Shown here piece by piece: positions 16,338 to 62,788 of a stretch of 64,000 bases of DNA. The notes under the pieces were generated by a model. That model was given only the letters and a program-made list of their open reading frames with translations, was not told the DNA's origin and did no database searches. The stretch covers positions 36,656 through 100,655 of the forward strand of contig JAFZUT010000011.1 of assembly GCA_017618175.1 (NCBI GenBank), given 5' to 3'. The translations under genes were made by a program, and so were the position numbers. The DNA comes from Alphaproteobacteria bacterium. GTDB taxonomy: Bacteria > Pseudomonadota > Alphaproteobacteria > Rs-D84. The number at the start of each line of letters is the position of its first letter. Positions within the stretch are counted from its first letter, which is position 1.

Positions 16338-16422
16338 AAAATATTCACCCCCTTTTGGTGATTTGGTGTTTTATTATTTTTACTGTCTGCAACGCAAGAC
16401 TTCGCGATTGCTCCGTTTGGGT

Positions 16423-16444: not shown

Positions 16445-16519
16445 GCGTGCGCGTTACGCACTCCGCCGCGGCACTCAATTTTTTTAATCGTGCGCCTTGC
16501 GCGCGATAACAAAAATTGG

Positions 16520-16596: not shown

Positions 16597-16694
16597 ATAA
16601 CTCTGTGCCGCGTATTCTATGCGGTTTTAGGTTAAAAGTCAATAAAAAAATAAATCTTTACACGCACGCGGCGAATTTCTATAATTGGTTCACT

Positions 16695-18491: not shown

Positions 18492-18588
18492 TATCAATAA
18501 ATGAAAAATGATATTTTTATGATTTTTTCTTGATTTTTTATAAAAGTATGTCATAATTTGCCCCGAACTGCTGGAAAAAGGAAGTTCT

Positions 18589-18664
18589 GGGGCTATAGCT
18601 CAGTTGGTAGAGCAAATGACTTTTAATCATTGGGTCCAGGGTTCGAGTCCCTGTGGCCCCACCA
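18589..18664 (+). tRNA. tRNA-Lys (anticodon UUU)
   Basis: GGGGCTA TA GCTC AGTTGGTA GAGC A AATGA CTTTTAA TCATT GGGTC CAGGG TTCGAGT CCCTG TGGCCCC A CCA. Confidence 0.95.
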
Positions 18665-18676
18665 AAGAAAACTGTT

Positions 18677-18711
18677 AACCCACGCACCGATGCGTGGGTT
18701 TAGAATTTTTT
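18677..18711 (+). terminator. rho-independent terminator after tRNA-Lys
   Basis: AACCCACGCA-ccga-TGCGTGGGTT followed by TAGAATTTTTT. Confidence 0.7.
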
Positions 18712-18804
18712 AGTGTCGCGCCGTAGTATTTTTCATATGAAAGAAAATTTGTTATATTTTCGCACGCAGCCGGACAAAAATCAAAAACCGACTTTATGTC
18801 GGTT

Positions 18805-19548: not shown

Positions 19549-19633
19549 AGGGGAAAACTTATAAACCTTGAATTTCTACACATTTTATACTATAATACGC
19601 GTGTGTGTGGCAACGCATCCAAAGGAGTCGGTC

Positions 19634-43837: not shown

Positions 43838-45577
43838 ATGTTGTTCGGTAAAAAATCCGGAATTAAAAACAAAAATCGTGAAAGATACGACCGCGTGCGC
43901 AAATTGATGTGGATAAAATGTGAAGCATGCGACAAATTGGTATATTACAAAGATTATAAAGATAACCATTATATATGTCCGCGGTGTGGACGCGCGTTCA
44001 TTATGAACCCAAAACAGCGTTTTGATTTGCTGTTCGACGACCGCACGTGGGAAAAAATAACGTTGCCGACCATGCCGGACGACCCATTAAAATTTGTGGA
44101 CCGAATACCGTACAAGGAACGTTTAGAAGAAGGGCGCAGCGATACAGGATACAATGACGCGGTTACGACCGCAGACGGTACAATCGGCGGAATCCCAACA
44201 ACAATTTGTGTTTTGAACGGCGAATTTATGATGGGGTCTATGGGACGTGTCGCCGGCGAGGCAATCGTGGCCAGTGCCGAACACGCAATCAAAACACATC
44301 ACCCAATGATTATGGTCGCGTGCAGTGGTGGGGCGCGGATGCAGGAAAACATACTGTCGTTAATGCAGATGGCGCGTACGACTGTTGCGGTCAACAAATT
44401 GCATGCGGCGGGAATTCCGTATATTGTGCTGCTGACGGACCCGACCTATGGCGGGGTGACGGCATCTTTTGCTATGTTGGGCGACATAAATATTGCGGAA
44501 TCTGGTGCGCGGATTGGGTTTGCCGGTCGCCGCGTAATTGAACAGAATATTCGTGAAAAATTGCCGTCTAATTTCCAAACGGCGGACTATCTGTATGAAC
44601 ACGGTATGGTCGATATGGTTGTGCCGCGTGGCGAATTAAAATCGCGTCTTGAAAAGATTTTGGCGGTCTTGATGCACCGGCCCCACGCGCCCCACGAAAT
44701 AACTGTCACGACACCGGACGCGTCCGATACATCTAAAAAGTCGCGTGGCATGGGTGAAAACCCGGCTTATGATAAAGTGTTGTTGGCACGAAACGAAAAT
44801 CGCCCGCACTTTTTGGACTATATAAACGGCATTGTGGACGATTGGACATATCTGGCCGGCGACCGGCTGTTTGGTGAAGACCCGGCGATGTGTGGTGGTT
44901 TGGGATATTGGAACGGGTTCCCGGCGGTGATTTTGGGCCAAGAAAAGGGTCGCACAATTGAAACACGTCAATTGCATCGCTTCGGCATGCCGAACCCCGA
45001 AGGCTATCGCAAAGCGCAGCGTTTGATGCGTCTGGCGGAACAATTCAAATTGCCGGTTGTGTCTTTGTTTGATACGGCGGGTGCCTTTGCGGGTAGTGCG
45101 GCCGAAGAACGTGGCCAATCCCAGGCGGTGGCATCATCAATTCAAACCGGGCTTTCCATTAAAACACCATATATCGCCGTTAATGTAGGCGAGGGCGGAT
45201 CCGGTGGTGCCATTGCAATTGGCACCGGTGACCGGGTGTTAATGTTGGAAAACGCGATTTATTCGGTAATTGCGCCGGAATCCTGCGCAAGTATTCTGTG
45301 GAAAGATAATAAATTCCGGGCAACTGCGGCGGCGGCAATGAAACTGACCGCGGCGGATATGATGGAAATGGGTGTAATTGATAAAATTATCGCGGAACCG
45401 GATGGTGGCGCACATAAAGATTGGCAAAAAACAATGGAAAATTTGTCAACTGCGGTTGGCGAGCAAATAAAACTGCTTAGTAAAACCGACCCGTCAAAAT
45501 TACCAGAGTTGCGCGCCGAAAAATTCCTTAAAATGACGCGCAAAATTGATGCGACACCGGCCAAGAAAACGAAATAA
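43838..45577 (+). CDS. acetyl-CoA carboxylase carboxyltransferase, fused beta (AccD) and alpha (AccA) subunits
   Basis: N-terminal AccD zinc ribbon CEAC-x15-CPRCG and GGARMQE. The C-terminal half is AccA-like (RPHFLDYI, GRTIETRQLHRFGMPNPEGYRKAQRLMRLAEQFKLPVVSLFDTAGA, GEGGSGGA). It is one uninterrupted 579-aa ORF. Confidence 0.88.
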   Translation: MLFGKKSGIKNKNRERYDRVRKLMWIKCEACDKLVYYKDYKDNHYICPRCGRAFIMNPKQRFDLLFDDRTWEKITLPTMPDDPLKFVDRIPYKERLEEGRSDTGYNDAVTTADGTIGGIPTTICVLNGEFMMGSMGRVAGEAIVASAEHAIKTHHPMIMVACSGGARMQENILSLMQMARTTVAVNKLHAAGIPYIVLLTDPTYGGVTASFAMLGDINIAESGARIGFAGRRVIEQNIREKLPSNFQTADYLYEHGMVDMVVPRGELKSRLEKILAVLMHRPHAPHEITVTTPDASDTSKKSRGMGENPAYDKVLLARNENRPHFLDYINGIVDDWTYLAGDRLFGEDPAMCGGLGYWNGFPAVILGQEKGRTIETRQLHRFGMPNPEGYRKAQRLMRLAEQFKLPVVSLFDTAGAFAGSAAEERGQSQAVASSIQTGLSIKTPYIAVNVGEGGSGGAIAIGTGDRVLMLENAIYSVIAPESCASILWKDNKFRATAAAAMKLTAADMMEMGVIDKIIAEPDGGAHKDWQKTMENLSTAVGEQIKLLSKTDPSKLPELRAEKFLKMTRKIDATPAKKTK

Positions 45578-46189: not shown

Positions 46190-46278
46190 TGGCGGAGCGT
46201 ATAGGACTCGAACCTATGGACCGCTATAACACGGTCACGGATTAGCAATCCGCTGCATTACCACTCTGCCAACGCTCC
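46190..46278 (-). tRNA. tRNA-Ser (anticodon GCU), long variable arm
   Basis: The reverse complement is GGAGCGTTGGCAGAGTGGTAATGCAGCGGATTGCTAATCCGTGACCGTGTTATAGCGGTCCATAGGTTCGAGTCCTATACGCTCCGCCA. The anticodon loop is TTGCTAA. Confidence 0.9.
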
Positions 46279-49022: not shown

Positions 49023-49057
49023 TGGCTCACCAAGGAAAATGACACACGAATTAACAG
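49023..49057 (-). pseudogene. decayed remnant of the tRNA-Asn 3' end plus a degenerate att core (outermost junction of the island array)
   Basis: TGGCTC-accaaggaaaa-TGACACACGAATTAACAG. TGGCTC matches the first 6 nt of the fragment at 62358. The core matches TGACATACGGATTAACAG at 16 of 18 positions. Confidence 0.45.
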
Positions 49058-49261: not shown

Positions 49262-49289
49262 TTGACTTTGCTTTATTTTGTTCTACACT
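49262..49289 (+). promoter_or_regulatory. sigma70-like promoter of the ProRS-like operon
   Basis: TTGACT (49262-49267), 16-nt spacer, TACACT (49284-49289). Confidence 0.4.
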
Positions 49290-49312
49290 AGTGTTAGACA
49301 AGAGGTTGATTG

Positions 49313-50509
49313 ATGCGGCTATCATCTGTGCCATATTCTCAAAATATAACTTTTAATAACTTGTCTTCGTCGCTTTCCTGCAATCAAATATTATCGGATA
49401 CCAAATTGGTTCAACAGAGCAACGCTGGGCATATCATTTATACACCAATTATTCAAAAAATTAAAAGAAACGTAGAAAACATAATATTATCACATGCCGA
49501 ATCATACGGATTCAATGAGATGCTGTTTCCTGTTTTAATGGATGCAAAATTATTAGATATATCAGGGAAAACGGATGAATATGCAAACGAATTTTATGAT
49601 ATATCTGATAAAAATGCAAATCTGGTGGTTTCGCCTACAACCGAAGAACGGCTTATAGATTTTGTTTCACGTAATGGAACTTTATCACACAAAAATTTAC
49701 CTATGCGTTTTTCACAGGTTTCGAATGTATATAGAAATTTAAAAAGACCAGAAGGATTATATAAATCACGTGAAATTTCTTGTGTGGTTTTGACGGCTGT
49801 TGATGCGGGGCGTCAACAGTATTTAGAAACAATGAAAGATTTCAGACTATTATGCGAAGAAACATTCGCCGATATTGGCATTCCTAATTTTTATATTCAA
49901 GATAAAATGTCCGGGGCAATAGAGTTTTTCTATGAAACAGAATTGGCTGACCGACCGTTGGATAAAAGTATCATAAATAATTTTGGCAACAAGAACATTT
50001 TTGATACCCAGAAACAGTATGGCAGTTTATCTATGGGGTATCCCTTTTATCAAAGTGAAAAGTTTAATTTATTTTATACCGACAAAGACGGAACACGAAA
50101 ACAGCCAATTGTAAGTACGTACGGTATCGGAACCCAACGTTGTATTTTGGTAATGTTTGAATATGCCAAGAACGGCAAACCAGATGCTTTTAAGCAAAAG
50201 GTCAGACCATTTGATGTTGATATCGTTGTGTTGGCTAAGGATAAATATAATTCACACATTCAAACACTGGCGGATAAATTGCGTCAGAATGGTGTTCAAT
50301 ATTGCATAGATGATCGTAACAACAGCATGCGAGACAAGATGCGTTTTTCTGAATTTTTTTCAGTTCCTTGTCGAATTATTATCGGTGACAAAGAGATTCA
50401 ACAAAACCAATATGCTATCAAGCCGTTGGGAGATAATGAAGTAATAACGGCAAATTTTGACAGTGCATTAAACATAGCTAAACAATTAACACAGGAGAAA
50501 GTACGATGA
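49313..50509 (+). CDS. divergent prolyl-tRNA-synthetase-like class IIa paralogue with an anticodon-binding domain
   Basis: IIYTPIIQKIKRNVENIILSHAESYGFNEMLFPVLMD...VVSPTTEERLIDFV...HKNLPMRFSQVSNVYRNLKRPEGLYKSREI parallels ProRS motifs 1 and 2, but YRNL replaces FRDE. Motif 3 is GIGTQRCILVMFE. The C-terminal HGTP-type domain is VDIVVLAKD...LRQNGVQYCIDDRNNSMRDKMRFSEFFSVPCRIIIGDKE. Confidence 0.6.
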   Translation: MRLSSVPYSQNITFNNLSSSLSCNQILSDTKLVQQSNAGHIIYTPIIQKIKRNVENIILSHAESYGFNEMLFPVLMDAKLLDISGKTDEYANEFYDISDKNANLVVSPTTEERLIDFVSRNGTLSHKNLPMRFSQVSNVYRNLKRPEGLYKSREISCVVLTAVDAGRQQYLETMKDFRLLCEETFADIGIPNFYIQDKMSGAIEFFYETELADRPLDKSIINNFGNKNIFDTQKQYGSLSMGYPFYQSEKFNLFYTDKDGTRKQPIVSTYGIGTQRCILVMFEYAKNGKPDAFKQKVRPFDVDIVVLAKDKYNSHIQTLADKLRQNGVQYCIDDRNNSMRDKMRFSEFFSVPCRIIIGDKEIQQNQYAIKPLGDNEVITANFDSALNIAKQLTQEKVR

Positions 50510-51510
50510 TAAAACCGGCATCTTCTTGGAAACAACCAGAACAACATTTAGAACAATTGCTAACAACACCATGGTATCGTGCTCTTAACAAAATATTTTC
50601 TCAAATTTTATTGTTAACGCACGATTTTTATAAAACAGAAAATATCACACCAACAATTTTCCCAATAACGACAGGTTCTGTTAGCAGCCCGTTTGGTTTG
50701 GGTAGTGATTCTTTGCCGGTTAAAATCAATATTAAAAATAATGATATGTTTTTGGCAGATTCTATGCAATTTTCGTTAGAAATAGCAACCCGTTTGAACG
50801 ACAAGGGGGCATATTATATTATGCCGTCTTTTCGTGGTGAAAATATGGATGCGCGTCATCTTAATGAATTCGTCCATTCCGAAGTGGAAATCAAGGGTGG
50901 TTTGGATGATGTTATGTCTTTGGCAGAACGCTATATTAAATATTTAATTCGTGGTTTGAAAGATACTTGTTCCAAAGAAATAATGGAAATTTGTGGCACA
51001 ACAGAACATCTGGATAAAGTGTTAAATAAACCTTTTTATAAAATAAGATTTGAAGACGCTATGTGTGAATTGGATAGTGTTTCCAATGCATTTAAAGAAT
51101 TGGATAAAGATTTATATGCGATAACATCTGTTGGGGAACGCGCTTTGATAGATAAATATGGCGATTTTACGTGGATTACGCATATGCCATATAAGTCAGT
51201 CCCGTTTTATCAAGCCAAAGAAACAGGTACAGATTTTTCAATGACAGGTGATTTGTTGGCTGGTATTGGCGAAACGTTGGGTTGCGGTCAGCGTGTATTA
51301 AGTTCACAGGATGCTATTAACTCGCTGGATGAACACAATGTTGATAAATCTGGCTATCAATGGTATATAGATATGCGTGACATCCAACAAATCCAAACAG
51401 CTGGATTCGGTATGGGTATAGAACGCTTTATTTTGTGGTTGCTAAAACACAATGACATCCGCGATTGCACACTTTTGTTGCGCGATCATAACAATGTCGT
51501 TTTTCCTTAA
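50506..51510 (+). CDS. AsnRS/AspRS-type class IIb catalytic-core protein without the OB anticodon-binding domain
   Basis: Motif 2 is SFRGENMDARHLNEFVHSEVE. Then comes YQWYIDMRDIQQIQTAGFGMGIERFILWLLKHNDIRDCTLLLRD, compared with YxWYLDLRRYGTxPHxGFGLGFERLV....NIRDVIPFPR in AsnRS. The protein starts directly at the motif-1 region. The ATGA start/stop overlap with the upstream gene implies translational coupling. Confidence 0.65.
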   Translation: MIKPASSWKQPEQHLEQLLTTPWYRALNKIFSQILLLTHDFYKTENITPTIFPITTGSVSSPFGLGSDSLPVKINIKNNDMFLADSMQFSLEIATRLNDKGAYYIMPSFRGENMDARHLNEFVHSEVEIKGGLDDVMSLAERYIKYLIRGLKDTCSKEIMEICGTTEHLDKVLNKPFYKIRFEDAMCELDSVSNAFKELDKDLYAITSVGERALIDKYGDFTWITHMPYKSVPFYQAKETGTDFSMTGDLLAGIGETLGCGQRVLSSQDAINSLDEHNVDKSGYQWYIDMRDIQQIQTAGFGMGIERFILWLLKHNDIRDCTLLLRDHNNVVFP

Positions 51511-52475
51511 TGTTTTATAACAGTTAAAGAACCATCTGATATATTAACCGTCCCGCCCAACGGTAAAACTGTCATTGGATAGGTATGTCCAAAATCCACA
51601 TTAGCAATAACAGGGATATTTTTTAATTCTGGATGAATATTAAATATAGAAACTATATCATCTTTTGATATCTCACTTTTGCTTTCTGTACGACCAATTA
51701 TCAATCCGCGAACATTCTTAAACCACGGTTGATGAATAGTAGATTGCAGAATTCTGTCTAAGATGTGTTTATTACCACCTTCTATTTCTAATGCCAAAAT
51801 TAAATTATTATCAGTTGGTATATATTGTGTGCCATATAATAATTGAAATGTTGTCATTTCACCGCCAATCAAAGCCCCAGTGGCAGAACCAGAATTTATA
51901 ACCCAAAATCCATCGTTTTTATTAAAATGTCTGTCTTCTTGATTCATAAACCATTCTGGATCGTCGCTCCATTCCTGACATGATTGAACGGAAAATTCTG
52001 AATCATCAAATAAAATTCGTCTTAAATAATCAAGAGTATAATCTGCGCCATATTTCATACCAAGGCTGGAAAAATGTGGCCCATAATATGAAACAATACC
52101 TGTTTTTGCCAATATCGCGTTTTGTAATGCCGCGATATCAGAATATCCGATTAACATTTTTGGATTTTGCTTTATCAGTTCATAATCTATTGAATCTAAT
52201 AATTGGTTTGAATTAAAACCGCCAATAACAGTAAAGATTGCTTTTACATTCTTATCAGTATACGCATCGTGCAAATCTTGTATTCTGGCATCAATTGGGG
52301 ACGAAACAAAAGAATCAATGATACCTAAATTTTTACCAAAAGATACTTTTAATTCCATTTGTTCAAGACGTTCTGTAGCAATTTTTCTAACATCTTCACC
52401 TATGATTTGGTATGAAAAAGCAGGAGCAATAATGCGCACTTCATCGCCTGCTTTTAATTTTCGTGGAAAAATCAT
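51507..52475 (-). CDS. S66-family serine peptidase (LD-carboxypeptidase / microcin C7 immunity MccF family)
   Basis: LKAGDEVRIIAPAF near the N-terminus, nucleophile motif IGYSDIAAL, and C-terminal NVDFGHTYPMTVLPLG (catalytic His). I cannot tell LdcA from MccF by eye. Confidence 0.7.
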   Translation of the reverse strand: MIFPRKLKAGDEVRIIAPAFSYQIIGEDVRKIATERLEQMELKVSFGKNLGIIDSFVSSPIDARIQDLHDAYTDKNVKAIFTVIGGFNSNQLLDSIDYELIKQNPKMLIGYSDIAALQNAILAKTGIVSYYGPHFSSLGMKYGADYTLDYLRRILFDDSEFSVQSCQEWSDDPEWFMNQEDRHFNKNDGFWVINSGSATGALIGGEMTTFQLLYGTQYIPTDNNLILALEIEGGNKHILDRILQSTIHQPWFKNVRGLIIGRTESKSEISKDDIVSIFNIHPELKNIPVIANVDFGHTYPMTVLPLGGTVNISDGSLTVIKH

Positions 52476-52489
52476 TCTCGTCTCCTTGT

Positions 52490-53314
52490 TTAATTGTTTG
52501 TTCCAAATACAAAGATATTATTGCCACGTGCCGCAATATCGCCATTTTTGATATGTTGTTTTTCCATATCAAAAATTTGTTTAAATATTTTTTTATTTTC
52601 CAGTATGTCAGCAATTTCGCCCGTTTGTCCACGTAATTGTGTTTCTTGGTAACCCGGATAAATCAAATTTGGAAACCCTGAACAAAAATCTACTTTGATA
52701 TTATGCTTTTCCATTATGTTTTTAATACTGTCTGGTGAAAACATATTGATATAAGGCATTTGGTCTGTAAAACGTCCAGAACCAGATAAACATTTGTTTG
52801 CTTCGTCTACGTTGCCCAGTTTCGTATTAAAGAACGCAGCATGATACATATTTGGAGCCAGTGTGCAAATTATGCCACCTTTTTTAGTTATAGATTTTAA
52901 TTGGTCAAAGAAATTATCAATATCTGGTCCAACAAAACCGATAACATTGTGAAAATTGAACACGAAATCAAATTGTTGTTTTATATCTGATAAATCATTC
53001 AGATCTTGTAATATAAAGTTCCATCTGTCTTTATATGGTGCGGATTTTTGTTTTGCGACATCTAGCATTTCTTTGGAAAAGTCTATGGTAACACCAGAGC
53101 ATTCAGGAAATTCTTGTAATAATTTTTGTGACCATCGACCAGTTCCGCCACCCGCATCACAAAATCTAAAATTTTTCGGTAATTTTGGAATGATATATGT
53201 TTTTATAGAGTCCCATAACAAAGCATCAGATAAACGCCAGTAACTTTGATTTTCTACAAGATCATATTCAGAGGCTTTGTCGGCAAAATATTTTAATACG
53301 GATTCTTTGTACAT
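52490..53314 (-). CDS. class I SAM-dependent methyltransferase
   Basis: Motif I FCDAGGGTGRW, acidic post-I residue in VTIDFS, and motif II-like FDFVFNFHNVIGFV. Confidence 0.75.
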   Translation of the reverse strand: MYKESVLKYFADKASEYDLVENQSYWRLSDALLWDSIKTYIIPKLPKNFRFCDAGGGTGRWSQKLLQEFPECSGVTIDFSKEMLDVAKQKSAPYKDRWNFILQDLNDLSDIKQQFDFVFNFHNVIGFVGPDIDNFFDQLKSITKKGGIICTLAPNMYHAAFFNTKLGNVDEANKCLSGSGRFTDQMPYINMFSPDSIKNIMEKHNIKVDFCSGFPNLIYPGYQETQLRGQTGEIADILENKKIFKQIFDMEKQHIKNGDIAARGNNIFVFGTNN

Positions 53315-53330
53315 GCTTCACCCCTTTTGC

Positions 53331-54608
53331 TTATTTGCATTTGGTTTTTGTTACAAGTTGAATTAAATCAGAAACGCTCATTTGTTGAGTATTTCCTGTG
53401 GCACGGTCTTTTATTTCCAAATTACCGGTATTGAAAAAGTTTTTCCCGGCAATTATTTTATTTGGGATACCAATCAAATCGCTTTCTGCAAATTTATTTC
53501 CACCACGAACATTTTGCCGATCATCATACAGCAAATCAAAATTCGCGTTTTGTAATTGATGATATAAATTTTCAACCTGTGCCATTTCGGCATCTTTAAT
53601 CGCTAAAGAAATTAAATGCCATTCAAACGGGGCTATTTTTTCCGGCCACACCAAACCTTTATCGTCACTTAGACATTCTGCAACAGTTCCCATAACGCGA
53701 CTTGGGCCAATACCATAACACCCCATAATAACAGGTTTTGTTTGACCGTCTTTATCAACAAAATTGGCATTAAATGGTCCTGTAAAACGTGTGCCCAGTT
53801 TAAATATATTTCCTACTTCTACGGCGCGTCTTTGTTCAAAAGAATTTTCCATACCATCTGTGTAATTTGGAACAATGTCTCTTAAAGCCGCCTTGTCATC
53901 AATGATTTCGCGATTGATGGCTATTTTCGTTCCTGGTAAAATAAAGATTGTATCTTCACCGGCATCAGTCAATGTTTGAAATTCATGTGAATATTTTGCA
54001 AAAGCACCACCACTGGCATATGTAAAATATGTTTTATCGCCAATGCCGCAATTGGTATAAAACTTCATATACATTTCTGCCACCTTATCATAGTAAGAAT
54101 CTAAATCTTCTTGTGATGCGTGAAACGAATATAAGTCATTCATTCTAAATTCTTTACAACGAAACAACCCAGATTTAGAACGTGGTTCGTCCCTGAATTT
54201 ATTTTGAATTTGAAATACAGACATTGGTAAATCTTTATAAGAAGAAATAAAATTTGTCACAAATGGCGTAACAACTTCTTCGTTCGTTGGGCTTAAAGCA
54301 TAATCTTTATCGCCATGACCTTTTATTTTATATAAAACATCTATTTTATCCCAGCGTCCTGTTTTGTGCCATACATCTGCAGGTTGCAAAACAGGCATAA
54401 TAACTTCTTGACCATTTACTGTCATCATATACTGACGGATTAAATTTTCAATTTTGTTTAATGTTCTATAGCCCAACGGCATATACGAATAAATTCCGCC
54501 CATCAATTTATGAATAAAGCCCGCGCGTGTAAGCAGCTGGGCATTTTTAGACATTTCTTGGTTGTTAAATTCTTTTTGGGTTTTATAAAATAAACTACTT
54601 TGACGCAT
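53331..54608 (-). CDS. proS: proline--tRNA ligase, short bacterial form without the INS editing domain
   Basis: AGFIHKLMGGIYSYMPLGYRTLNKIENLIR...ALSPTNEEVVT...YKDLPMSVFQIQNKFRDEPRSKSGLFRCKEFRMNDLYSF (motif 2), GCYGIGPSRVMG (motif 3), and a C-terminal HGTP anticodon-binding domain. 425 aa. Confidence 0.85.
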   Translation of the reverse strand: MRQSSLFYKTQKEFNNQEMSKNAQLLTRAGFIHKLMGGIYSYMPLGYRTLNKIENLIRQYMMTVNGQEVIMPVLQPADVWHKTGRWDKIDVLYKIKGHGDKDYALSPTNEEVVTPFVTNFISSYKDLPMSVFQIQNKFRDEPRSKSGLFRCKEFRMNDLYSFHASQEDLDSYYDKVAEMYMKFYTNCGIGDKTYFTYASGGAFAKYSHEFQTLTDAGEDTIFILPGTKIAINREIIDDKAALRDIVPNYTDGMENSFEQRRAVEVGNIFKLGTRFTGPFNANFVDKDGQTKPVIMGCYGIGPSRVMGTVAECLSDDKGLVWPEKIAPFEWHLISLAIKDAEMAQVENLYHQLQNANFDLLYDDRQNVRGGNKFAESDLIGIPNKIIAGKNFFNTGNLEIKDRATGNTQQMSVSDLIQLVTKTKCK

Positions 54609-54964: not shown

Positions 54965-54982
54965 TGACATACGGATTAACAG
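54965..54982. repeat. 18-nt att-core direct repeat (copy 2 of 3)
   Basis: TGACATACGGATTAACAG, identical to 62385-62402. It is the reverse complement of the tRNA-Asn anticodon-loop/variable region CTGTTAATCCGTATGTCA. Confidence 0.9.
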
Positions 54983-55260
54983 CTGCCCCTCAATGAATAT
55001 TTATTTTAATGTGCTTGAGTGTAAACCTAACGCCTTGTGTGCCACAGATGCCGTGGTGTTGAGGGATTTGGTTTTGTTTGGATTTGACTTAAAATGACAC
55101 AAAAATTTGTTCTAAAATTGTCCCAAAATATAACCTCTGTGTAGACCTTTTTTAAGATAGCAAAAAAGCCTTACAAAGCCCGATTTGACTGGATGTGACT
55201 GTATAAAGATAGTGTAGATTTGTATTTAAAAATTCACTTTATTTGTTAACAGAAATTCTA

Positions 55261-55289
55261 TTGCAAAAAACATAATTTTTTATTATGTT
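55261..55289 (+). promoter_or_regulatory. sigma70-like promoter
   Basis: TTGCAA (55261-55266), 17-nt spacer, TATGTT (55284-55289). Confidence 0.4.
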
Positions 55290-55324
55290 AAATTTGAAAA
55301 AATAATCTAAAGAGGTATATGATA

Positions 55325-55753
55325 ATGACGTGGTCTGATTTCTTTTCGTCTCAATTATTTGGGATTATTCTTGGGGCATTATTGACATCCGGTTTTACAT
55401 GGTTTGTAGACTTTTTAAAAAGCAAACGAGATAGGGGACTTTATATAAAACAAAAACGAGAAGAATTATATATCAATGTGTGCCAGGTTTTAATGGAACA
55501 TGAAAAGTATCGTCGTTCCCATGAATGGCCAAAGAAATGTAAAACAATGTTTAATGCATTGCAGGGGCAAATGTTGATATATGCATCTAAGAAGATTTAC
55601 GGTGCATACTATGCTTTGGATACAGAAATATGTAATTGTTACGATACAATGCGTAGTCAAAAGCAGATAGAAGCAAAATCAAATGAAATAGCAGATAAGA
55701 TAGTAAAACTAGCAACTAAAATGCGTAAAGAGTTGGGGATAAAGGGGGGGTGA
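55325..55753 (+). CDS. hypothetical single-pass membrane protein
   Basis: The second ATG is chosen for its spacing from AGAGG. TM helix LFGIILGALLTSGFTWFV, then a helical K/E-rich domain. Confidence 0.5.
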   Translation: MTWSDFFSSQLFGIILGALLTSGFTWFVDFLKSKRDRGLYIKQKREELYINVCQVLMEHEKYRRSHEWPKKCKTMFNALQGQMLIYASKKIYGAYYALDTEICNCYDTMRSQKQIEAKSNEIADKIVKLATKMRKELGIKGG

Positions 55754-55965
55754 TGTTGTGTTTCTGTGAATCGTGTATGTTTTCTCAAAAAATATATACT
55801 AATTTCAGCACGAAAATCACATCTAAAATCTAACCTGAAATCAAGATTGATAATTTAGTTAATAACAATACTGATTTCTAGAAAAAATAAAATTTCTGTT
55901 TTTGTACGGGTGTGTCAGAGGAAAAAACAATTTTTAATATTTTCTGTTAAAAACGAAAAAGACTA

Positions 55966-55993
55966 TTGAAAAATATGGTTTTTTTGTTATATT
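55966..55993 (+). promoter_or_regulatory. sigma70-like promoter of the three-gene operon
   Basis: TTGAAA (55966-55971), 16-nt spacer, TATATT (55988-55993). Confidence 0.4.
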
Positions 55994-56018
55994 TCATATT
56001 GAAAAAGGATATTTGATA

Positions 56019-56633
56019 ATGAGAAATTGGTGGTATTCATTTGTTGAACATTTTAGAACTTGTTCCTCATGGTTTGGGGCGATAGTTTCTTGGTTGGCTA
56101 TTTTTTTCGTTTTTATTACAGCGATGGTTGTTTTTGCTAAGCCGTATGTATCTCGGATTTATGCAGATACTTATATAGTGGCAGATACAGATATAAATTT
56201 AGTTACAGAAAAAGATAGAAAATCGATAAATAATTTAATAATGAAAAACAAAATTGTGCCGGTTTCGATTGTATATGAAGATACACTTAGGTATTATGAG
56301 GAAATAATAGCAATTTTAATAGCTTTATTAGGTGTGTTTGCGGTTGTTTCTTGGTTTTTTATGGGTGGACGTATGCGAGAGGGCTTGCACAAAGAAATTC
56401 AATCAAAATGGTTTGATATTTGTTTAAATGACAAGATGTCCAAATTATTAAAGTCTGATATGGGGGATTATTTAGCTGAACAATTTGATGATGAAAAAAT
56501 TCGAAGTATAGCACGTGAAGAATTTGAAGGTATGACTAATAAGCTTTCCGATGATTTACAAGAAAAGAATAATGCTGTGCTGCATCTTAAACGAAATTTG
56601 CGGGTAAGATCAAAAAAAGTGGGAGGTAAATAA
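56019..56633 (+). CDS. hypothetical two-pass membrane protein (first gene of the ImmA/beta-protein operon)
   Basis: ATG 56019 lies 9 nt after AAGGA. TM helices FGAIVSWLAIFFVFITAMVVF and IIAILIALLGVFAVVSWFF. Its stop overlaps the next start (TAATG). Confidence 0.5.
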   Translation: MRNWWYSFVEHFRTCSSWFGAIVSWLAIFFVFITAMVVFAKPYVSRIYADTYIVADTDINLVTEKDRKSINNLIMKNKIVPVSIVYEDTLRYYEEIIAILIALLGVFAVVSWFFMGGRMREGLHKEIQSKWFDICLNDKMSKLLKSDMGDYLAEQFDDEKIRSIAREEFEGMTNKLSDDLQEKNNAVLHLKRNLRVRSKKVGGK

Positions 56634-57199
56634 TGGCTACAGATTTGTCTAATTGGTCAAATTTTATCTCAAATAAAGATATTGAAACTTATGCAAAAAA
56701 ACAGAAAAAGAACAACGTATCTAAGACGTTAAGTGCTCAAGATGTCTGGACCGCTGCGTTAGAAGCAAAAAAAACAGAACCGTTAGATATAGAATGGGTT
56801 GCAGAAAAATTATTTGGCTTAAATGTTGTGAAAAGGGATTTAGGAGAAGCTTCAGGTTTTTTAAATGTGTTGGATGATCAGTGGTGTATTTTTGTTAATA
56901 AATTTGAAAACGAACGGAGACAACGTTTCACTATTGCTCATGAACTAGGACATTTCGTATTGCATAAAGACAAGAGCATAACCTCAAAAGATATTATATT
57001 TTTTAGAGATGAGAATACCAATATTGAAGAACAAGAAGCAAATAATTTTGCTTCAGAGTTATTGATGCCTGAAAGAAAGATTCGTGAATATATAAAAGAG
57101 GGATATAATACAATATCTTTGTTGGCAGATAAGTTTTGTTTGTCGACACCTGCAGTGCGTTATAGACTTTACAAACTTGGTTTAATATCGGAGTATTGA
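56633..57199 (+). CDS. ImmA/IrrE-family (M78, DUF955) zinc metallopeptidase
   Basis: FTIAHELGHFVLH (HExxH) followed by EEQEANNFASELLMPERKI, the family's second signature. Confidence 0.8.
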   Translation: MATDLSNWSNFISNKDIETYAKKQKKNNVSKTLSAQDVWTAALEAKKTEPLDIEWVAEKLFGLNVVKRDLGEASGFLNVLDDQWCIFVNKFENERRQRFTIAHELGHFVLHKDKSITSKDIIFFRDENTNIEEQEANNFASELLMPERKIREYIKEGYNTISLLADKFCLSTPAVRYRLYKLGLISEY

Positions 57200-57201
57200 T
57201 T

Positions 57202-58332
57202 ATGTCAAAATATTGTTATTTCCCGATACTGAAAACACGCCCGTCAGAAGTCAATGCTTACGACTCTTTGGCAGATAATATTAAAGAAGAGGTGTTGCCT
57301 ATTATTGAAATGACGGGAGAACTTGGTTATACATATTCTAAAAATTGTAAAGATGAAAATTGCAGAGGAGTTAGACGCCCTGGGGATATAAATAAAAAAA
57401 TTACGAAAATTTTAGATTTTATGGGGAATAAAAGGTTTGTTTTAGATATAACAGATGATTCATCTTTGAAATATGATGGTTTAAGCGCCACAGGGAGTGG
57501 TTTGTTGAATCCAAATAATGGATATAGAAATTGGCTAGATTTTTTACAACGAAACGATACTTTTAAACGTTTAGTAATTCCTACAATTCAATTTGACACA
57601 ACCTATCGGCAAGATGTACAAATGCAGATAGAAGAATTAAAAAATCATTTTGATTATATGGCTATAAAATTACCATCTACAACGGATGCCAAGATTATAA
57701 ATCAGGTTATAGATTTTGTTACTAATATTATAGGGGTAAATAAATTATTTGTGATATTAGATTTTGATTTTATAAAATCTTTTACCCAAAAAGAAACGTC
57801 TGAATATGTAAAGCCAATCGATGTATCAAAAATAAAAGCTTTGATCCCTGTCTCTTCTAGTTTTCCTGCATCGGTTATACACATAGATAAAATTTGTGGT
57901 AGTATAGATATTTTAGAAAACCAACTCAGTGATTGTATAAGACAAACCTTGGGAAATAAGGTTTTTCATGGTGATTTTTCTTCTATACACCCAACTCGTT
58001 ATGAGATGGGCGGCGGAGGTTGGTACCCAAGAATAGATTATATAGAGAGAGATTTACGAACAAAAAAACCTATTAAATATCATTTCTTTAGAGGAACTGG
58101 CCGAAATACCAGTTCTGAATATGTTGAGTTAGCAAAACGGGTAACAGAAGCTAAAAACTATGTTCCCATAAGCGAATTTAATGTAGCCGGAGATTTGCAA
58201 ATTAAGAAAAAAGCCAAAGGAGAAATGGAAGGTAAGGCACCTTCTTATTGGATTGCTGTAAGATCTAATCTTTATCTAACCATGCAGTATTTATATTTGA
58301 GAAGACAACCGGATGCTTTTTTGTATTTGTAA
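57202..58332 (+). CDS. 'beta protein'-like (PF14350 / sce7725-like) protein of unknown function
   Basis: The N-terminus YCYFPILKTRPSEVNAYDSLADNIKEEVLPIIEMTG fits the Y.P.LK.K.GE..AL..L.......PLIE pattern I remember for this family. GGAG lies 8 nt upstream of the ATG, and the gene is coupled to the ImmA-like gene. Confidence 0.45.
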   Translation: MSKYCYFPILKTRPSEVNAYDSLADNIKEEVLPIIEMTGELGYTYSKNCKDENCRGVRRPGDINKKITKILDFMGNKRFVLDITDDSSLKYDGLSATGSGLLNPNNGYRNWLDFLQRNDTFKRLVIPTIQFDTTYRQDVQMQIEELKNHFDYMAIKLPSTTDAKIINQVIDFVTNIIGVNKLFVILDFDFIKSFTQKETSEYVKPIDVSKIKALIPVSSSFPASVIHIDKICGSIDILENQLSDCIRQTLGNKVFHGDFSSIHPTRYEMGGGGWYPRIDYIERDLRTKKPIKYHFFRGTGRNTSSEYVELAKRVTEAKNYVPISEFNVAGDLQIKKKAKGEMEGKAPSYWIAVRSNLYLTMQYLYLRRQPDAFLYL

Positions 58333-58942
58333 TATAATTTAAATCCTCAAGTATGACCTTTTGCCCTTTTTCTTTAAGAAATAATTTATAGCCATCTCCA
58401 TAGCGTCTTTGTAAAGATATGATTATTTGATTTTGAATGTTCACTGTCGTGCATTCTTCGATAGCTCTTTGTTTAAGTTGTTCAAATGCGGATTTTTTAT
58501 ATTTTGGTAGCAACTTTTCTAAATCTTTGCGCCATAGAACAGAAGTCATATATGTTTTATCTAAGGAAATTTTTTTCCTTGCTTTTCTTTTTAATATTAA
58601 CTTGTTGTCGGAGCTTATTACTATAAGGCCTATGTTTTTTGGTAGTTTAGTAAGTTCCTTAGATTTTGCAAATTTGCACGAGTAAACCAAATAAACAAAA
58701 TTGAAAGTTTTTCGGTAATCTGATATTTGATCTAGCATAGTTTTAAGATTGTCGTATTTGCTTTTAATTTCAAAACCTATGGACATTCCATTATTTATCG
58801 CGACAAGATCTGCAGAACGTTTACAGCACAAAAACGGCAATTCGTTTACTATCAGCTCATATTTAGCGTGTTTAAGCAGAAAGTCAATAAGCTCTGCTTT
58901 GATAAAATTTGCTTCTCCGTATTTCCCCTTTTTTAATCCCAT
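58265..58942 (-). CDS. PD-(D/E)xK-fold nuclease-like protein (MmcB / sce7726-like)
   Basis: RSADLVAINNGMSIGFEIKSKYD gives a D...E-x-K arrangement. It is the last gene of the minus-strand operon. Its 3' end overlaps the convergent gene by 68 nt. Confidence 0.45.
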   Translation of the reverse strand: MGLKKGKYGEANFIKAELIDFLLKHAKYELIVNELPFLCCKRSADLVAINNGMSIGFEIKSKYDNLKTMLDQISDYRKTFNFVYLVYSCKFAKSKELTKLPKNIGLIVISSDNKLILKRKARKKISLDKTYMTSVLWRKDLEKLLPKYKKSAFEQLKQRAIEECTTVNIQNQIIISLQRRYGDGYKLFLKEKGQKVILEDLNYITNTKKHPVVFSNINTAWLDKD

Positions 58943-58983
58943 GACACGCTCTCGTAATTTTATGATGTTATATATGTGTTATT

Positions 58984-59526
58984 TTAATGTTGTGTTGGAA
59001 CAGGTAAACCAAACTTTTGTAATGGGATATATTCAAAATAATATGAACAACCGACCGAAACTATATAATCTAAGACATCTTGATAACAAGGTTGTTTGAA
59101 CCAGTCGCTTAATAAGTAAATATACTCAACTTCCATGTTCAACTGTGACAACAATTTTTTATATTGTTTTTTCTTGAAATCACAAGTTTGCAATTTTTCG
59201 TCTACAGAACCGGCAACACGTTGAAACTTACATTCAATAACAAAAAACGTGTTGTTTATAACAACATAAATAGAATCATCCGGTAATAATTTCTTAGATA
59301 AAATAGATTTCCAATCAATTCCACGATATTCTAAAAATTTATATAAAGCAGATTTCTTGAATATTGATGCGACTTCTTCGCCTTTATATAACACTGACAC
59401 CCAACCGCGTTTATCATCAACACAATTGTACCCTGGTTGTGAACATAAAAATGTACGCAAATCAGTTTTACCTTCAAAAACTAAACCTGTTTTGGTATTT
59501 GCTCCGCCAATTCCGTTCGCTTTCAT
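58984..59526 (-). CDS. putative type II restriction endonuclease (PD-(D/E)xK motif)
   Basis: LPDDSIYVVINNTFFVIECKFQ (D...E-x-K). Its ATGA overlaps the upstream methylase gene, in the position dpnB occupies in DpnII-type cassettes. Confidence 0.45.
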   Translation of the reverse strand: MKANGIGGANTKTGLVFEGKTDLRTFLCSQPGYNCVDDKRGWVSVLYKGEEVASIFKKSALYKFLEYRGIDWKSILSKKLLPDDSIYVVINNTFFVIECKFQRVAGSVDEKLQTCDFKKKQYKKLLSQLNMEVEYIYLLSDWFKQPCYQDVLDYIVSVGCSYYFEYIPLQKFGLPVPTQH

Positions 59527-60308
59527 TTTTTATCCTTTTTTTCAGATATATCATATAACCTTTTTTCAGCCAGTTCAACAAATTGTGGCTCTTGGTCTAT
59601 ACCCACAAATAGACGGCCATGTTTTAATGCTGCAACCCCCGTCGTTCCACTGCCCATAAACGGATCTAAAATCAAGTCGCCTGGATTTGTAGAAGCCAAA
59701 ATAATGCGTTCCAACAATTCCACTGGTTTTTGAGTCGGGTGTTTGCCAAATTTCTTTTCTTCTTTGGTTGGCGTTCCAATAGCCCAAACACTTCGCATTT
59801 GGCAACCTGGCTTTTTAATAAAGTCTTTTTGGAAATCTCCATTTTTCATGGCTTCATAATTAAATGTGTGTTTTGCTTTTTTATTTTTGCGCGCCCAAAG
59901 CAATGTCTCGTGGCTTGCGGTAAAGTACCTGCAGGACATATTCGGACTGGCATTTGGCTTAAACCAAGTTATGTCGTTCAAAATATGAAAACCAAGTAAT
60001 TGCATAGCAAATCCGCACGAATATATGCTGTGGTATGTGCCGCTAATCCACAATGTTCCATTTGGTTTCAAAACACGATGACATGCACAAAGCCACTTTT
60101 TATGAAATTCAAAATCATCACTAAGACCATGTGATTTATCCCAATCGCCTTTGTTTACAGACACAACGCAACCATTTTGACATGTGATACCACCATTAGA
60201 AAGCATGTATGGAGGGTCCGCAAAAATCATATCAAATGTATTTTCTGGAAGTTCAAGCAACTTTTCAAGGCAATCTGCACAATAAAGACGATACTGTTTC
60301 TTAGTCAT
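59523..60308 (-). CDS. beta-class N6-adenine/N4-cytosine DNA methyltransferase (DpnA-like)
   Basis: Motif IV FADPPY comes first. The SAM-binding motif LDPFMGSGTTGVAA is near the C-terminus, which is the beta-class order. Confidence 0.8.
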   Translation of the reverse strand: MTKKQYRLYCADCLEKLLELPENTFDMIFADPPYMLSNGGITCQNGCVVSVNKGDWDKSHGLSDDFEFHKKWLCACHRVLKPNGTLWISGTYHSIYSCGFAMQLLGFHILNDITWFKPNASPNMSCRYFTASHETLLWARKNKKAKHTFNYEAMKNGDFQKDFIKKPGCQMRSVWAIGTPTKEEKKFGKHPTQKPVELLERIILASTNPGDLILDPFMGSGTTGVAALKHGRLFVGIDQEPQFVELAEKRLYDISEKKDKK

Positions 60309-61233
60309 AATTTGTAATCAATAATTCACGAATTGCATCACGACCGTCTGCCTTGGAATTGATAAGACGTCTGGCCAAAATACGGTTAATTTTATAATCT
60401 TTGTATAAATCATCAAAGAACGGGTCTTCAATATAATTGGTTGGGTCTGAATTGCTCAACATCTGCAAAGCCCCCATTTGGTGACATGTGTCAAAGACCT
60501 GTTTCAAACGTTCCTGTTCAGCATCGTCAAAATCACCCACGGCATAAGAATTGAAAGATGATGTTTCACGAATTGGACGATATGGAGGGTCATAATAAAT
60601 GAATGTGTCAGCTTTTACATAATCTGGTGTTGCGCCAAAGTCTGCTTGTATAATAGTAGCAATTTGCAAAGCTTCGGATACGTTGCGTAAGTTTTCTTCG
60701 TCCAAGATACGTGGGTTTGTATATTTGCCCATCGGAACATTGAATTTGTTTTTGCTGTTTACGCGGAACAAACCATTAAAGCATGTCCGGTTCAAGAATA
60801 TCGTTAGGGCAGCGCGGCGAACAAAACTTGTGCGGTATACATTGGCATCAACATTTTTATCACAATCGTTATATTCATCGCGTCTGGCATAATAATACGC
60901 CTTTGTATCATCTGTATGTCTGTATTCGGTCTGAATCTTGGTCAACTCAACAATCAAACTTTCCACATCGCGTTTTATAACGTTGTAAAGAATCACTAAT
61001 TCTGGATTGATATCAAATAAAAACGCTTCCTGGATTTGATATCTATTGTATATGTCAAAGAATACGGCACCGCCACCAACAAAGGGTTCTATATACCGTT
61101 TGATGCCCCCCATCTTTAGTTTCAAAGGAAGTTTTTGTTCAATTTGTTCCAACAATTGCCCTTTGCCGCCGGCCCATTTTAACACAGGGCGGCATTCTGT
61201 ATAATCTGGCAATCTGGCTGGTATCGCTATCAA
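60301..61233 (-). CDS. Dam-family (alpha-class, D12) DNA adenine methyltransferase
   Basis: LKWAGGKGQLL, EPFVGGGAVFF (motif I), then YYDPPY (motif IV). The start is TTG, 6 nt after GGAAAGGA. Confidence 0.85.
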   Translation of the reverse strand: MIAIPARLPDYTECRPVLKWAGGKGQLLEQIEQKLPLKLKMGGIKRYIEPFVGGGAVFFDIYNRYQIQEAFLFDINPELVILYNVIKRDVESLIVELTKIQTEYRHTDDTKAYYYARRDEYNDCDKNVDANVYRTSFVRRAALTIFLNRTCFNGLFRVNSKNKFNVPMGKYTNPRILDEENLRNVSEALQIATIIQADFGATPDYVKADTFIYYDPPYRPIRETSSFNSYAVGDFDDAEQERLKQVFDTCHQMGALQMLSNSDPTNYIEDPFFDDLYKDYKINRILARRLINSKADGRDAIRELLITNYD

Positions 61234-61293
61234 AACTCATCCTTTCCTTGTTGATATATTAGAACAAAATGCCGTATAAAATCAAGGGGTTTA

Positions 61294-62025
61294 TTAGAAT
61301 TTTAATATAACATCGGCTATCTGTTTCACGTCTTTCAAAGTCATACTAGCCTGCATATTCAAGCCCCTTGGAACATTGATTTCAAGTATCTTATCAGCAG
61401 TTTCTTGTGTGATATTTAACCAATTTATTATCTTCGTAGTATCAACGATAAAAATATTTTGAATATAAGTTTTATTTTTATCTGGGATAAAGAAACAGGT
61501 TATGGTTTCGGGACCATGATGCTTAACTATTTCCGCGTACCGCCTCAAGTCCAACCATATGCTATTCCCCTTTTTTATTTCTATATTTACCCCATTGCAA
61601 ACAGCATCGAAATATCTGTTTTCTTGGTCTTGCCATAGTGTTTCTTTGCATAAATCTTTTTCATAGGTGTTAGGGCGCTTTACCCAATCACCAACAAGCT
61701 TTTTATCTAATGTCGAAATTATCAGTTCTTTCCAATTACTTTGCACTTTACAAATCCTATACGACATAATTCTATCATATATGACATGTTTTTGCAATTG
61801 TGATGTATCCGTATTTATGTGTATGTGTTTCCACAAAGCAGCCATTTGAAATAATTTGTAATACAAACGGCGAAATAACCAAGTTTGTTTGCAAGTTAGG
61901 TTGTCGTTTTGTTTATGGCGCACATTCGATTCCAATTCGCGCAAAGATCGGCATGCTGCGAAGTAGAGCATGATGAAATCGGTTTTGTGGTTTGGTTTGA
62001 TATCTTTAAAATGTTTATACTTCAT
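61294..62025 (-). CDS. hypothetical protein with a PD-(D/E)xK-like motif (first gene of the methylase operon)
   Basis: RYFDAVCNGVNIEIKKG (D...E-x-K). RBS AAAGGGGTGG. Confidence 0.35.
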   Translation of the reverse strand: MKYKHFKDIKPNHKTDFIMLYFAACRSLRELESNVRHKQNDNLTCKQTWLFRRLYYKLFQMAALWKHIHINTDTSQLQKHVIYDRIMSYRICKVQSNWKELIISTLDKKLVGDWVKRPNTYEKDLCKETLWQDQENRYFDAVCNGVNIEIKKGNSIWLDLRRYAEIVKHHGPETITCFFIPDKNKTYIQNIFIVDTTKIINWLNITQETADKILEINVPRGLNMQASMTLKDVKQIADVILKF

Positions 62026-62311
62026 GTGCCACCCCTTTAAAAGTTGTTGTATTTGTCCTTATCTTTCAACAAAAGTCCAGTCATTTCTTGAAATTCTGAT
62101 AATTAAAAATGTATACATTTTGTATACAGCAGATATACGGACTTCGTTCCGTTGTTCTCAGGGCTGTATAATCTTCTGAAAGGCTTATAAATACTGGGTT
62201 GGCTATCATTTTTATAGGCGTTTTTTCTACAGGTCGTGTATAACTCCGGTATAATTGTTTGCTATTTTTAACACTTTTTTGCGTTTTATACCAGAACAAA
62301 TTGCCGCAAGC

Positions 62312-62350
62312 AAAAACAAAAGAAAATGCCGTAATTCCAAAGAATTACGG
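62312..62350 (-). terminator. rho-independent terminator following the tRNA-Asn 3' fragment
   Basis: On the minus strand: GCCGTAATTC-ttg-GAATTACGGC followed by ATTTTCTTTTGTTTTT. Confidence 0.65.
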
Positions 62351-62357
62351 CTAATTT

Positions 62358-62402
62358 TTGGCTCGGGCAACTGGACTCGAACCAGTGACATACGGATTAA
62401 CA
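62358..62402 (-). pseudogene. 3' fragment of tRNA-Asn(GUU), anticodon loop through CCA; an att junction, not a complete tRNA
   Basis: The reverse complement is CTGTTAATCCGTATGTCACTGGTTCGAGTCCAGTTGCCCGAGCCA. The loop, variable region and T-arm match E. coli tRNA-Asn as I recall it. The sequence 5' of it (gattttatcattaggt) cannot form the anticodon stem, D-arm or acceptor strand. Confidence 0.8.
62385..62402. repeat. 18-nt att-core direct repeat (copy 3 of 3)
   Basis: TGACATACGGATTAACAG, identical to 54965-54982. Confidence 0.9.
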
Positions 62403-62788
62403 GACCTAATGATAAAATCAAAAAATCTGCTGTAAGCCACAGGTTCCGCCGGTTTCCCGTTCTTAACATGTTTTCAGTGTGCGGATTAGTGCGCCTCACC
62501 CCAAAAACATGTCTGAGCCAGCCATATAGCACATGATATTTTATATGAAATCATTTCTGATATCAATATAAAAATGCCTGTGGATATCATTCACGATTTC
62601 AAATATGAAACAAATGCCGATTATTTATCCGATTTTGAAAATGGTTCTTATATGAAATCAAAAATAACATACCAGATTTGAAGAACGATTTATAAAAAAC
62701 AATGTAGATATTTTTAGATATTTGTGAATAGAAAAATCCGATTTTATCCATACCATAAAAAATGTACAACAAACCAAAAGGACACATC

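Follow-up and report, generated by a model that had tools for sequence, protein, structure and literature searches.

A candidate aminoacyl-nucleotide antibiotic module built around an AgnA-type enzyme and a prolyl-tRNA synthetase in an uncultured gut alphaproteobacterium

Why would an uncultured gut alphaproteobacterium carry side by side two proteins related to prolyl-tRNA synthetase (ProRS), the catalytic core of another aminoacyl-tRNA synthetase (aaRS), a methyltransferase and a serine peptidase? The question is posed by a five-gene cassette at positions 49313 to 54608 of a 64-kb stretch of contig JAFZUT010000011.1, a stretch called the window here; the genes are lettered A to E in order of position. 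A preliminary description of this DNA had suggested a system that makes, or protects against, an aminoacyl-nucleotide antibiotic. Support for that reading comes from B, which along its full length is homologous to AgnA of plasmid pAgK84 (the "agrocin 84 synthetase"; 46% identity over 334 residues, E=2e-111). The agn cluster comprises agnA, genes for S-adenosylmethionine (SAM) enzymes (agnB1 lying beside agnA), an agrocin-resistant leucyl-tRNA synthetase (LeuRS; agnB2), an MccF-like protein (agnC5) and agnC1. On balance, the cassette is probably a compact, horizontally acquired AgnA-type module for biosynthesis and immunity, whose product would most likely be an N-prolyl nucleoside 5'-phosphoramidate. 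Such a compound would mimic prolyl-AMP without being hydrolysable and would inhibit the ProRS of competitors.

The cassette and its five proteins

Genes A (49313-50509, plus strand; 398 residues from the ATG, or 399 if the TTG at 49310 is the start) and B (50506-51510, plus strand; 334 residues) are translationally coupled through a 4-nt ATGA overlap. They converge on C (51507-52475; 322 residues; S66 serine peptidase), D (52490-53314; 274 residues; class I SAM methyltransferase) and E (53331-54608; 425 residues; full ProRS), all on the minus strand, and the stop codons of B and C overlap in a TTAA at 51507-51510, in agreement with the two convergent operons of five genes described previously. 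No space for a terminator is left at this 4-nt overlap, and transcription of each operon must therefore run on into the other. The overlap is kept across the family, at sites equivalent to 51507-51510 of the window in loci L001, L004 and L006. No ThiF domain was detected in A to E, and no further open reading frame of at least 80 residues inside the segment, which upholds the statement that neither an MccB/ThiF-type adenylyltransferase nor a precursor-peptide gene is present.

The five families were supposed to belong together, and they do: among related loci of sufficient length, 13 of 13 carry A to E together with order and orientation unchanged, far beyond chance. Identity to the window copy ranges from 100% down to 47% (A), 65% (B), 54% (C), 58% (D), and 66% (E). 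Genome matches are metagenome-assembled genomes (MAGs) of Candidatus Enterousia and of unnamed gut and rumen Alphaproteobacteria.

B consists of a class IIb aaRS core (tRNA-synt_2) without an OB domain, as expected for the AsnRS/AspRS-type catalytic core lacking that domain that had been recognized. Across 11 cluster-borne homologues, 77 alignment columns are invariant, including motif 2 (SFRGE) and motif 3 (GFGxGxER). Since the pocket is invariant across clusters of differing aaRS specificity, B probably acts on the common nucleotide part; sequence comparison suggests that the aaRS-like partner, and not B, sets the amino-acid specificity. The AsnA-like identity once offered for B gives way to an AgnA-type one. 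Assignment as an asparagine synthetase A of the archaeal AS-AR type was rejected with scores below both NCBIfam cut-offs (NF005055, 238.7 bits, cut-off 389; NF005053, 237.6 bits, cut-off 322), and 'asparagine synthetase A' is the label that the NCBI pipeline gives to AgnA homologues.

A comprises a class IIa core (tRNA-synt_2b) and an HGTP_anticodon domain (Pfam). Its best scores against proS models are 116-139 bits, with cut-offs of 307-558, and it fails as a bacterial-type ProRS. It retains 39 of 126 ProRS-invariant positions, including PTxEE and the motif-2 and motif-3 arginines (R141 and R276); the motif-2 Glu, the adenine-stacking Phe and the Glu before motif 3 are replaced, and approximately 25 residues are deleted. 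The YRNL reported in place of the motif-2 FRDE is real: it stands where ProRS has FRDE or FRNE and is invariant throughout the A family, which keeps its own invariant motifs under strong purifying selection. In a confident AlphaFold2 model (pLDDT 85), with the INS-less R. palustris ProRS as best PDB match (TM 0.78), the anticodon-binding domain is intact, as the preliminary description had it. The retention of class II motifs 2 and 3 in B, and of both ATP-phosphate arginines in A, likewise bears out the view that neither is an ordinary duplicate. A recent origin of A by duplication of E was rejected, A scoring 62-87 bits against the E clade and thus being no closer to it than to other ProRS (median 72 bits). 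The A family is rare: it falls into approximately 30 clusters at the 90% identity level, and of 1.84 billion representatives searched, 30 matched at E<=1e-30.

With 414 bits against the curated proS model TIGR00409 (cut-off 307), E qualifies as a ProRS, and it retains the positions invariant in alpha-type ProRS; the INS domain is lacking, as in R. palustris ProRS. All cassette-linked copies carry H109N (GPTHEE to SPTNEE) and L149F, in the PTHEE and motif-2 loops, to which the subclade of the window adds G151C and R152K in the motif-2 loop. These clade-specific substitutions lie in the adenylate pocket. The earlier characterization of E as a normal-looking INS-less ProRS therefore stands as regards a full proS product without INS, but not as regards its adenylate pocket, and H109N and L149F are concrete candidate resistance determinants. 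The GC content at third codon positions (GC3) of E is 0.27. Its closest non-cassette relative, P0041 (L111, 2613-3869; 64% identity), sits in a rimM-proS-lolC/E context with a GC3 of 0.53. It retains His109, and the metagenome series it comes from is the one that also yielded the cassette contigs. P0041 may be the native proS of the hosts, and a native proS accompanied by an acquired E fits the data without being proven by them. A second proS in a cassette-bearing MAG was also sought, and the two NCBI-sourced ProRS examined belonged to other assemblies.

C contains N- and C-terminal Peptidase_S66 domains. Its matches to BA_5613 and Lmo1638 (E=1e-90), B. anthracis MccF (1e-37) and LdcA (1e-14), together with 79 bits against an LdcA model with a cut-off of 378, place it in the MccF clade, where it had been tentatively put, and not among LdcA murein recyclers. 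The catalytic triad, S112 (in GYSD), Glu and His, aligns with that of B. anthracis MccF, as do both loop Trp residues. According to a review, W186 of E. coli MccF stacks on adenine, and on our reading of the alignment the loop Trp residues of C would be its equivalents. C is 29% identical to AgnC5, the "MccF-like protein" of the agn cluster (E=2e-40).

The domain call for D agrees with a class I SAM methyltransferase; its lineage is CmoM/BioC/UbiE-like, and the nearest solved structure is CmoM (E=1e-8). The SAM enzymes adjoining AgnA (AgnB1-type) form one orthologous group, to which MccD, the enzyme that alkylates the phosphoramidate oxygen of microcin C, is the nearest relative of solved structure (E=9e-21). 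Scores within this group are 130-270 bits, those of D against it no more than 37 bits, and orthology of D to AgnB1 or AgnC3 was rejected, the SAM motif alone being held in common. D-type methyltransferases recur beside AgnA-type genes in other loci.

Mobile context and the AgnA-type family

The GC content of the window drops at approximately 49 kb from 0.42-0.50 to 0.30-0.36, and the GC3 of A to E is 0.21-0.30, compared with 0.47-0.52 in core genes such as those for AlaRS (alanyl-tRNA synthetase) and AccD-AccA. By this measure, the composition of the cassette is foreign. An 18-mer, TGACAYACGRATTAACAG, occurs at 49040, 54965 and 62386, with a chance expectation of 0.01 copies. The first copy forms the left att-like repeat (TGACACACGAATTAACAG, 49040-49057, plus strand), part of an imperfect repeat of approximately 90 nt that is also present at the right boundary, where the second copy (TGACATACGGATTAACAG, 54965-54982, plus strand) closes the segment. 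Read in reverse complement, the 18-mer corresponds to tRNA-Asn(GTT) from the anticodon loop through the 3' anticodon stem to the variable loop. An intact tRNA-Asn containing it is found in L030; none was found within the window. The third copy, at the end of segment 2, belongs to the reverse complement of a tRNA-Asn 3' half with no 5' half (62342-62403, plus strand). It extends as far as the 3' end of the tRNA, and beyond it comes a tyrosine integrase gene (63059-64000, plus strand, cut by the window end; Phage_int_SAM_3 and Phage_integrase), the sole recombinase seen near the array. Because the repeats derive from tRNA-Asn and the third lies at the integrase, the low-GC island is read as an array of att-bounded segments. 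The repeats at 49040 and 54965 bracket exactly A to E, so the cassette is segment 1 and nothing else, as proposed, and has no recombinase of its own.

Repeat bracketing of the cassette was also observed in L009 and L023, and the first two repeat copies of the window share a CGCAGAAATCCGC motif approximately 45 nt upstream. Integration at a tRNA-Ser (46190-46278) was rejected, since the cassette is found on the 5' side of this tRNA and the repeats derive from tRNA-Asn. Flanks vary among loci: an integrase adjoins E in L006 and L007, with GmrSD and a KAP NTPase upstream, and other genes are found in L001. The acetyl-CoA carboxylase carboxyltransferase subunits AccD and AccA are fused into one 579-residue protein in the window (43838-45577), and this fusion also lies near the cassette in the more distant loci L004 and L005. 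Segment 2 (54983-62385) holds defence-type genes encoding a CapP/ImmA-like metallopeptidase (56633-57199), a 'beta'/PD-Lambda-2_C-like protein (57196-58332), a cll-like protein (58265-58942), a PD-(D/E)XK protein (58984-59526) and two DNA methyltransferases (59523-60308, and 60301-61233 of the D12 class). Directly 5' of A, a candidate sigma-70-type promoter (TTGACT-16 nt-TACACT) and an AAGAGG ribosome-binding site (49262-49306, plus strand) were identified as a consensus match only. An Rfam scan for regulatory RNAs returned tRNA only.

The cassette sits in a far larger modular family that is absent from the literature searched. Homologues of B number 890 by word index, and at least 534 matches were found in metagenome contigs. 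A census was taken of the 26 metagenome loci in which the AgnA-type gene is flanked by 5 kb or more on both sides, a partner being counted if within 8 kb. S66 genes are near the AgnA-type gene in 21 of these loci (81%), MccD-like methyltransferases in 11 and D-type methyltransferases in six. The usual partners are an S66 peptidase, a methyltransferase and a degenerate aaRS-like protein, often together with a full aaRS (LeuRS, AlaRS, or ProRS). Relative to B, the S66 genes are polyphyletic: stand-alone Bacillus and Listeria genes share 44-55% identity with C, those of sister AgnA-type clusters only 28-29%. An obligatory biosynthetic role for S66 was therefore not adopted as the main reading, despite its frequency; some clusters have none nearby.

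In Xenorhabdus bovienii (L013/L014, 8001-17080), genes for AgnA-like and MccD-like proteins are accompanied by those for an S66 peptidase, a nucleoside phosphorylase, a LeuRS, a ProRS-like paralogue and an MFS protein. This is a true LeuRS (1091 bits), 42% identical to AgnB2, and both here and in L101 the ProRS-like partner goes with a LeuRS. L013/L014, together with L048, L050 and L101, are agrocin 84-like clusters outside Rhizobiales. An Exiguobacterium plasmid (L021) combines a degenerate AlaRS-like protein, MccD-like and AgnA-like proteins, a full AlaRS and an MFS protein, and L029, L030 and L015 encode AlaRS-like, S66, AgnA-like, methyltransferase and ATP-grasp proteins, with a second AlaRS-type gene in L029. 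A second ProRS-linked architecture occurs in L084 (573-6139), where a HisZ/HisRS-like paralogue, the degenerate partner in this case, is found with an AgnA-like protein, a D-type methyltransferase of the CmoM-like lineage of D, an S66 peptidase and a true ProRS. On Pantoea agglomerans plasmids (L022, 8413-11236) a two-gene variant occurs, in which a GNAT acetyltransferase carries the AgnA-like domain at its C-terminal end and the sole gene after it encodes an MFS transporter.

A candidate mechanism and its rivals

Two pathways in which aaRS relatives act on nucleosides provide a framework for the division of labor between A and E. In ascamycin biosynthesis, the canonical AlaRS AcmD charges Ala-tRNA and is the more resistant copy, the degenerate AlaRS-like AcmF moves Ala from Ala-tRNA to the NH2 of a nucleoside sulfamate, and AcmE is a hydrolase predicted to cleave the alanyl group again. 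In the SB-203208 pathway, an additional IleRS, SbzA, acts in a comparable manner. A fits the AcmF/SbzA pattern in its aaRS fold, tRNA-binding domain, lost activation residues and adjacent E, yet it retains both phosphate-binding arginines. Sequence homology between A and AcmF is not expected, AcmF being AlaRS-like. As the retained anticodon domain and lost ATP-site residues of A match the AcmD/AcmF pattern, A is proposed to be an aminoacyl transferase like AcmF, which by this analogy is likelier than its being a second activating enzyme.

In the pathway envisaged, B would use ATP to build the P-N (phosphoramidate) scaffold of the nucleotide, as its homology to AgnA suggests. A would transfer a prolyl group onto the phosphoramidate nitrogen, the donor probably being Pro-tRNA(Pro), as for AcmF and SbzA; a less likely variant has A itself activate proline. 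D would then methylate the product, for example at the position methylated in phosmidosine, a phosphate oxygen, or at a carboxyl or an amine group. E, with its altered adenylate pocket, would keep translation going and supply Pro-tRNA, as AcmD does, and C would strip the aminoacyl group, at the aminoacyl-N(P) amide bond, from product accumulating in the cell. This scheme draws on established observations, namely homology, strict joint inheritance of A to E, the existence of a modular family, a mobile setting and patterns of residues.

Several points weigh against the scheme. The cassette product is predicted from the genes alone, and the reaction of AgnA is itself proposed and never demonstrated, its exact pathway not being known according to a 2021 review. 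D lies outside the MccD/AgnB1 lineage that accompanies AgnA elsewhere, with another methyltransferase lineage in its place. A was also considered as a homologue of AgnC1 and rejected (BLASTP E=0.47; hhalign probability 0.2%, with sensitivity limited by AgnC1 being a single sequence). ProRS-like partners pair with LeuRS in other clusters, so that E is the only basis for the assignment of proline. Every contig with an identical AccD-AccA flank carries the cassette, and no empty-site allele that would show E to be dispensable was found among them. The main weakness is the missing exporter: no gene for an exporter, a transporter or an uptake moiety was found between the att repeats or in the conserved flanks. 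It is tempting to speculate that a methylated, uncharged phosphoramidate might need no exporter.

This last idea forms part of a wider reading that is tentative and, taken as a whole, rather doubtful. The cassette would be the smallest representative of a large modular family, so far unrecognised, whose nucleotide antibiotics arise with neither ribosomal peptides nor nonribosomal peptide synthetases. An invariant AgnA-type enzyme would make a nucleoside phosphoramidate, with asparagine as a possible nitrogen donor and the nearly universal MccF-type peptidase releasing AMP-NH2, and interchangeable degenerate aaRS-like transferases would load amino acids from aminoacyl-tRNA, with ProRS, LeuRS, AlaRS and others as targets. 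The product of the gut cassette would be a mimic of Pro-AMP, neutral and methylated, with no need of an exporter or a Trojan-horse carrier.

Absence of an exporter is equally a point for a resistance-only island, in which E and C protect against a prolyl-nucleotide antibiotic made by others and A, B and D salvage or detoxify it. Stand-alone MccF homologues that confer resistance are common, as reviewed, and the closest relatives of C, BA_5613 and Lmo1638, are stand-alone genes. Such an island is nevertheless unlikely: B is a full-length homologue of a biosynthetic enzyme and keeps the catalytic motifs, the translationally coupled A and B are retained in all 13 loci, and the characterised clusters with the same kinds of genes, agn and acm, are those of producers. 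The lack of export would also suit an anti-phage or conflict system that makes a toxic nucleotide analogue in the cell upon infection, in the manner of the chain terminators of viperin, and defence-type neighbors are plentiful, in the window (CapP/ImmA-like, 'beta'/PD-Lambda-2_C-like, cll and DNA methyltransferases), in L006 (GmrSD and KAP NTPase) and in L029 (GmrSD and SLFN). Bacteriocin and antibiotic loci also cluster in such islands, however, and a resistant ProRS would save the translation of the phage along with that of the host. PADLOC gave no convincing match for A, B, C or E and matched D alone, to the methyltransferase region of mad2, and no cassette copy was found on viral contigs; a defence role is on these grounds quite unlikely.

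Two further explanations dispense with a nucleotide toxin. Were the genes linked by chance, E would be the only proS, B an archaeal-type asparagine synthetase, C a murein-recycling enzyme and A a decaying ProRS duplicate. The NCBI name for AgnA homologues, the fixation of the cassette in all sampled strains of the species and the full set of ProRS invariants in E are compatible with this account, which is very unlikely when set against the sub-threshold scores of B (238 bits, cut-offs 322 and 389) and C (79 bits, LdcA cut-off 378), the purifying selection on A and its own invariant motifs, which speak against decay, the foreign GC3 of 0.21-0.30 in all five genes between att repeats, and the presence in the same sample series of P0041, a proS of housekeeping context and host-like GC3. 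Modification of tRNA or aminoacyl-tRNA, with A binding tRNA(Pro), D methylating it and B and C adding and trimming a group for a change in decoding or for protection, could draw on the intact anticodon-binding domain of A and on the tRNA methyltransferase CmoM as nearest characterised relative of D. The latter similarity is weak (E=1e-8) and reflects only the generic class I fold, and this highly improbable scheme would leave the AgnA homology, the MccF-clade peptidase and the parallel LeuRS and AlaRS versions unexplained.

If the cassette is a biosynthesis and immunity module, its five genes and single clear specificity signal (ProRS) would make it about the simplest system for working out both AgnA-type P-N bond formation and the attachment of the aminoacyl group. 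A programmable way of making aaRS inhibitors, with different synthetases as targets, is suggested by the family census. ProRS is a validated drug target, and to our knowledge almost nothing is known of antagonism among uncultured gut and rumen Alphaproteobacteria.

Relation to known systems

The cassette resembles most closely a minimal, ProRS-directed version of agrocin 84-type aminoacyl-nucleotide systems, and the earlier interpretation is largely right. One of its statements, that no described system has this gene set, does not hold, as AgnA, the MccF-like AgnC5, SAM enzymes and the resistant LeuRS AgnB2 are combined in the agn cluster. AgnA corresponds to B (46%) and AgnC5 to C (29%), SAM enzymes and mobile DNA are common to both systems, and the cluster-borne aaRS that confers immunity is the AgnB2 LeuRS in one and, as proposed, the E ProRS in the other. 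Agrocin 84 is an aminoacyl-AMP mimic with an N-acyl phosphoramidate, and the product of the cassette is predicted to be of the same class. The agn cluster has 17 genes and LeuRS as its synthetase, compared with five genes and ProRS here, and the cassette lacks the AgnG exporter and the genes for the opine-like uptake group and 3'-deoxy sugar of agrocin 84. In addition, D is not of the AgnB1/MccD type, A has no detectable relation to AgnC1, and the host is an uncultured gut alphaproteobacterium. The 2021 review describes AgnC1 as remotely ProRS-like and agrocin 84 as the sole characterised compound of its class, with its biosynthesis unsolved; the other clusters listed there are one from Ensifer and some actinobacterial ones linked to MetRS. 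Our search found no literature after 2021 on agrocin-type biosynthesis, and none tying AcmF-like enzymes to AgnA.

Ascamycin and SB-203208 offer the closest parallels for the proposed roles of E (AcmD), A (AcmF) and C (AcmE). Their scaffolds are a sulfamate or sulfonamide, their specificities those of AlaRS and IleRS, and they have no AgnA-type enzyme; moreover, AcmE is an alpha/beta hydrolase, whereas C is an S66 peptidase. The AlaRS-directed loci L021, L029, L030 and L015, where a degenerate AlaRS-like protein and a functional AlaRS copy accompany the AgnA-like gene, look, by analogy, like phosphoramidate counterparts of the AcmF/AcmD pair. With microcin C the cassette shares immunity through an MccF-clade peptidase and, as predicted, a phosphoramidate mimic of an aminoacyl-adenylate, and the SAM enzymes of sister clusters are MccD-like. 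The cassette differs in lacking a precursor peptide and MccB/ThiF, in a D that is not MccD-like, and in its predicted target, ProRS rather than AspRS.

Phosmidosine, a prolyl 8-oxoadenosine methyl phosphoramidate from Streptomyces, is a Pro-AMP mimic whose prolyl, methyl and phosphoramidate parts would correspond to A and E, to D and to B, respectively; the cassette has no hydroxylase for the 8-oxoadenine. The literature searched names no phosmidosine gene cluster. A plasmid of Streptomyces sp. NBC_01707 (NZ_CP109191.1, about 269-277 kb; positions 11971-20113 of locus L019) encodes AgnA-like and MccD-like proteins, an S66 peptidase and the FAD and molybdopterin subunits of a hydroxylase. It also encodes a ProRS paralogue resembling A (166 bits to A, 78 bits to E), and an MFS gene lies close by. 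As this gene set fits the needs of phosmidosine, it is a candidate phosmidosine cluster, and by analogy it lends indirect support to the link with phosmidosine drawn in the preliminary description.

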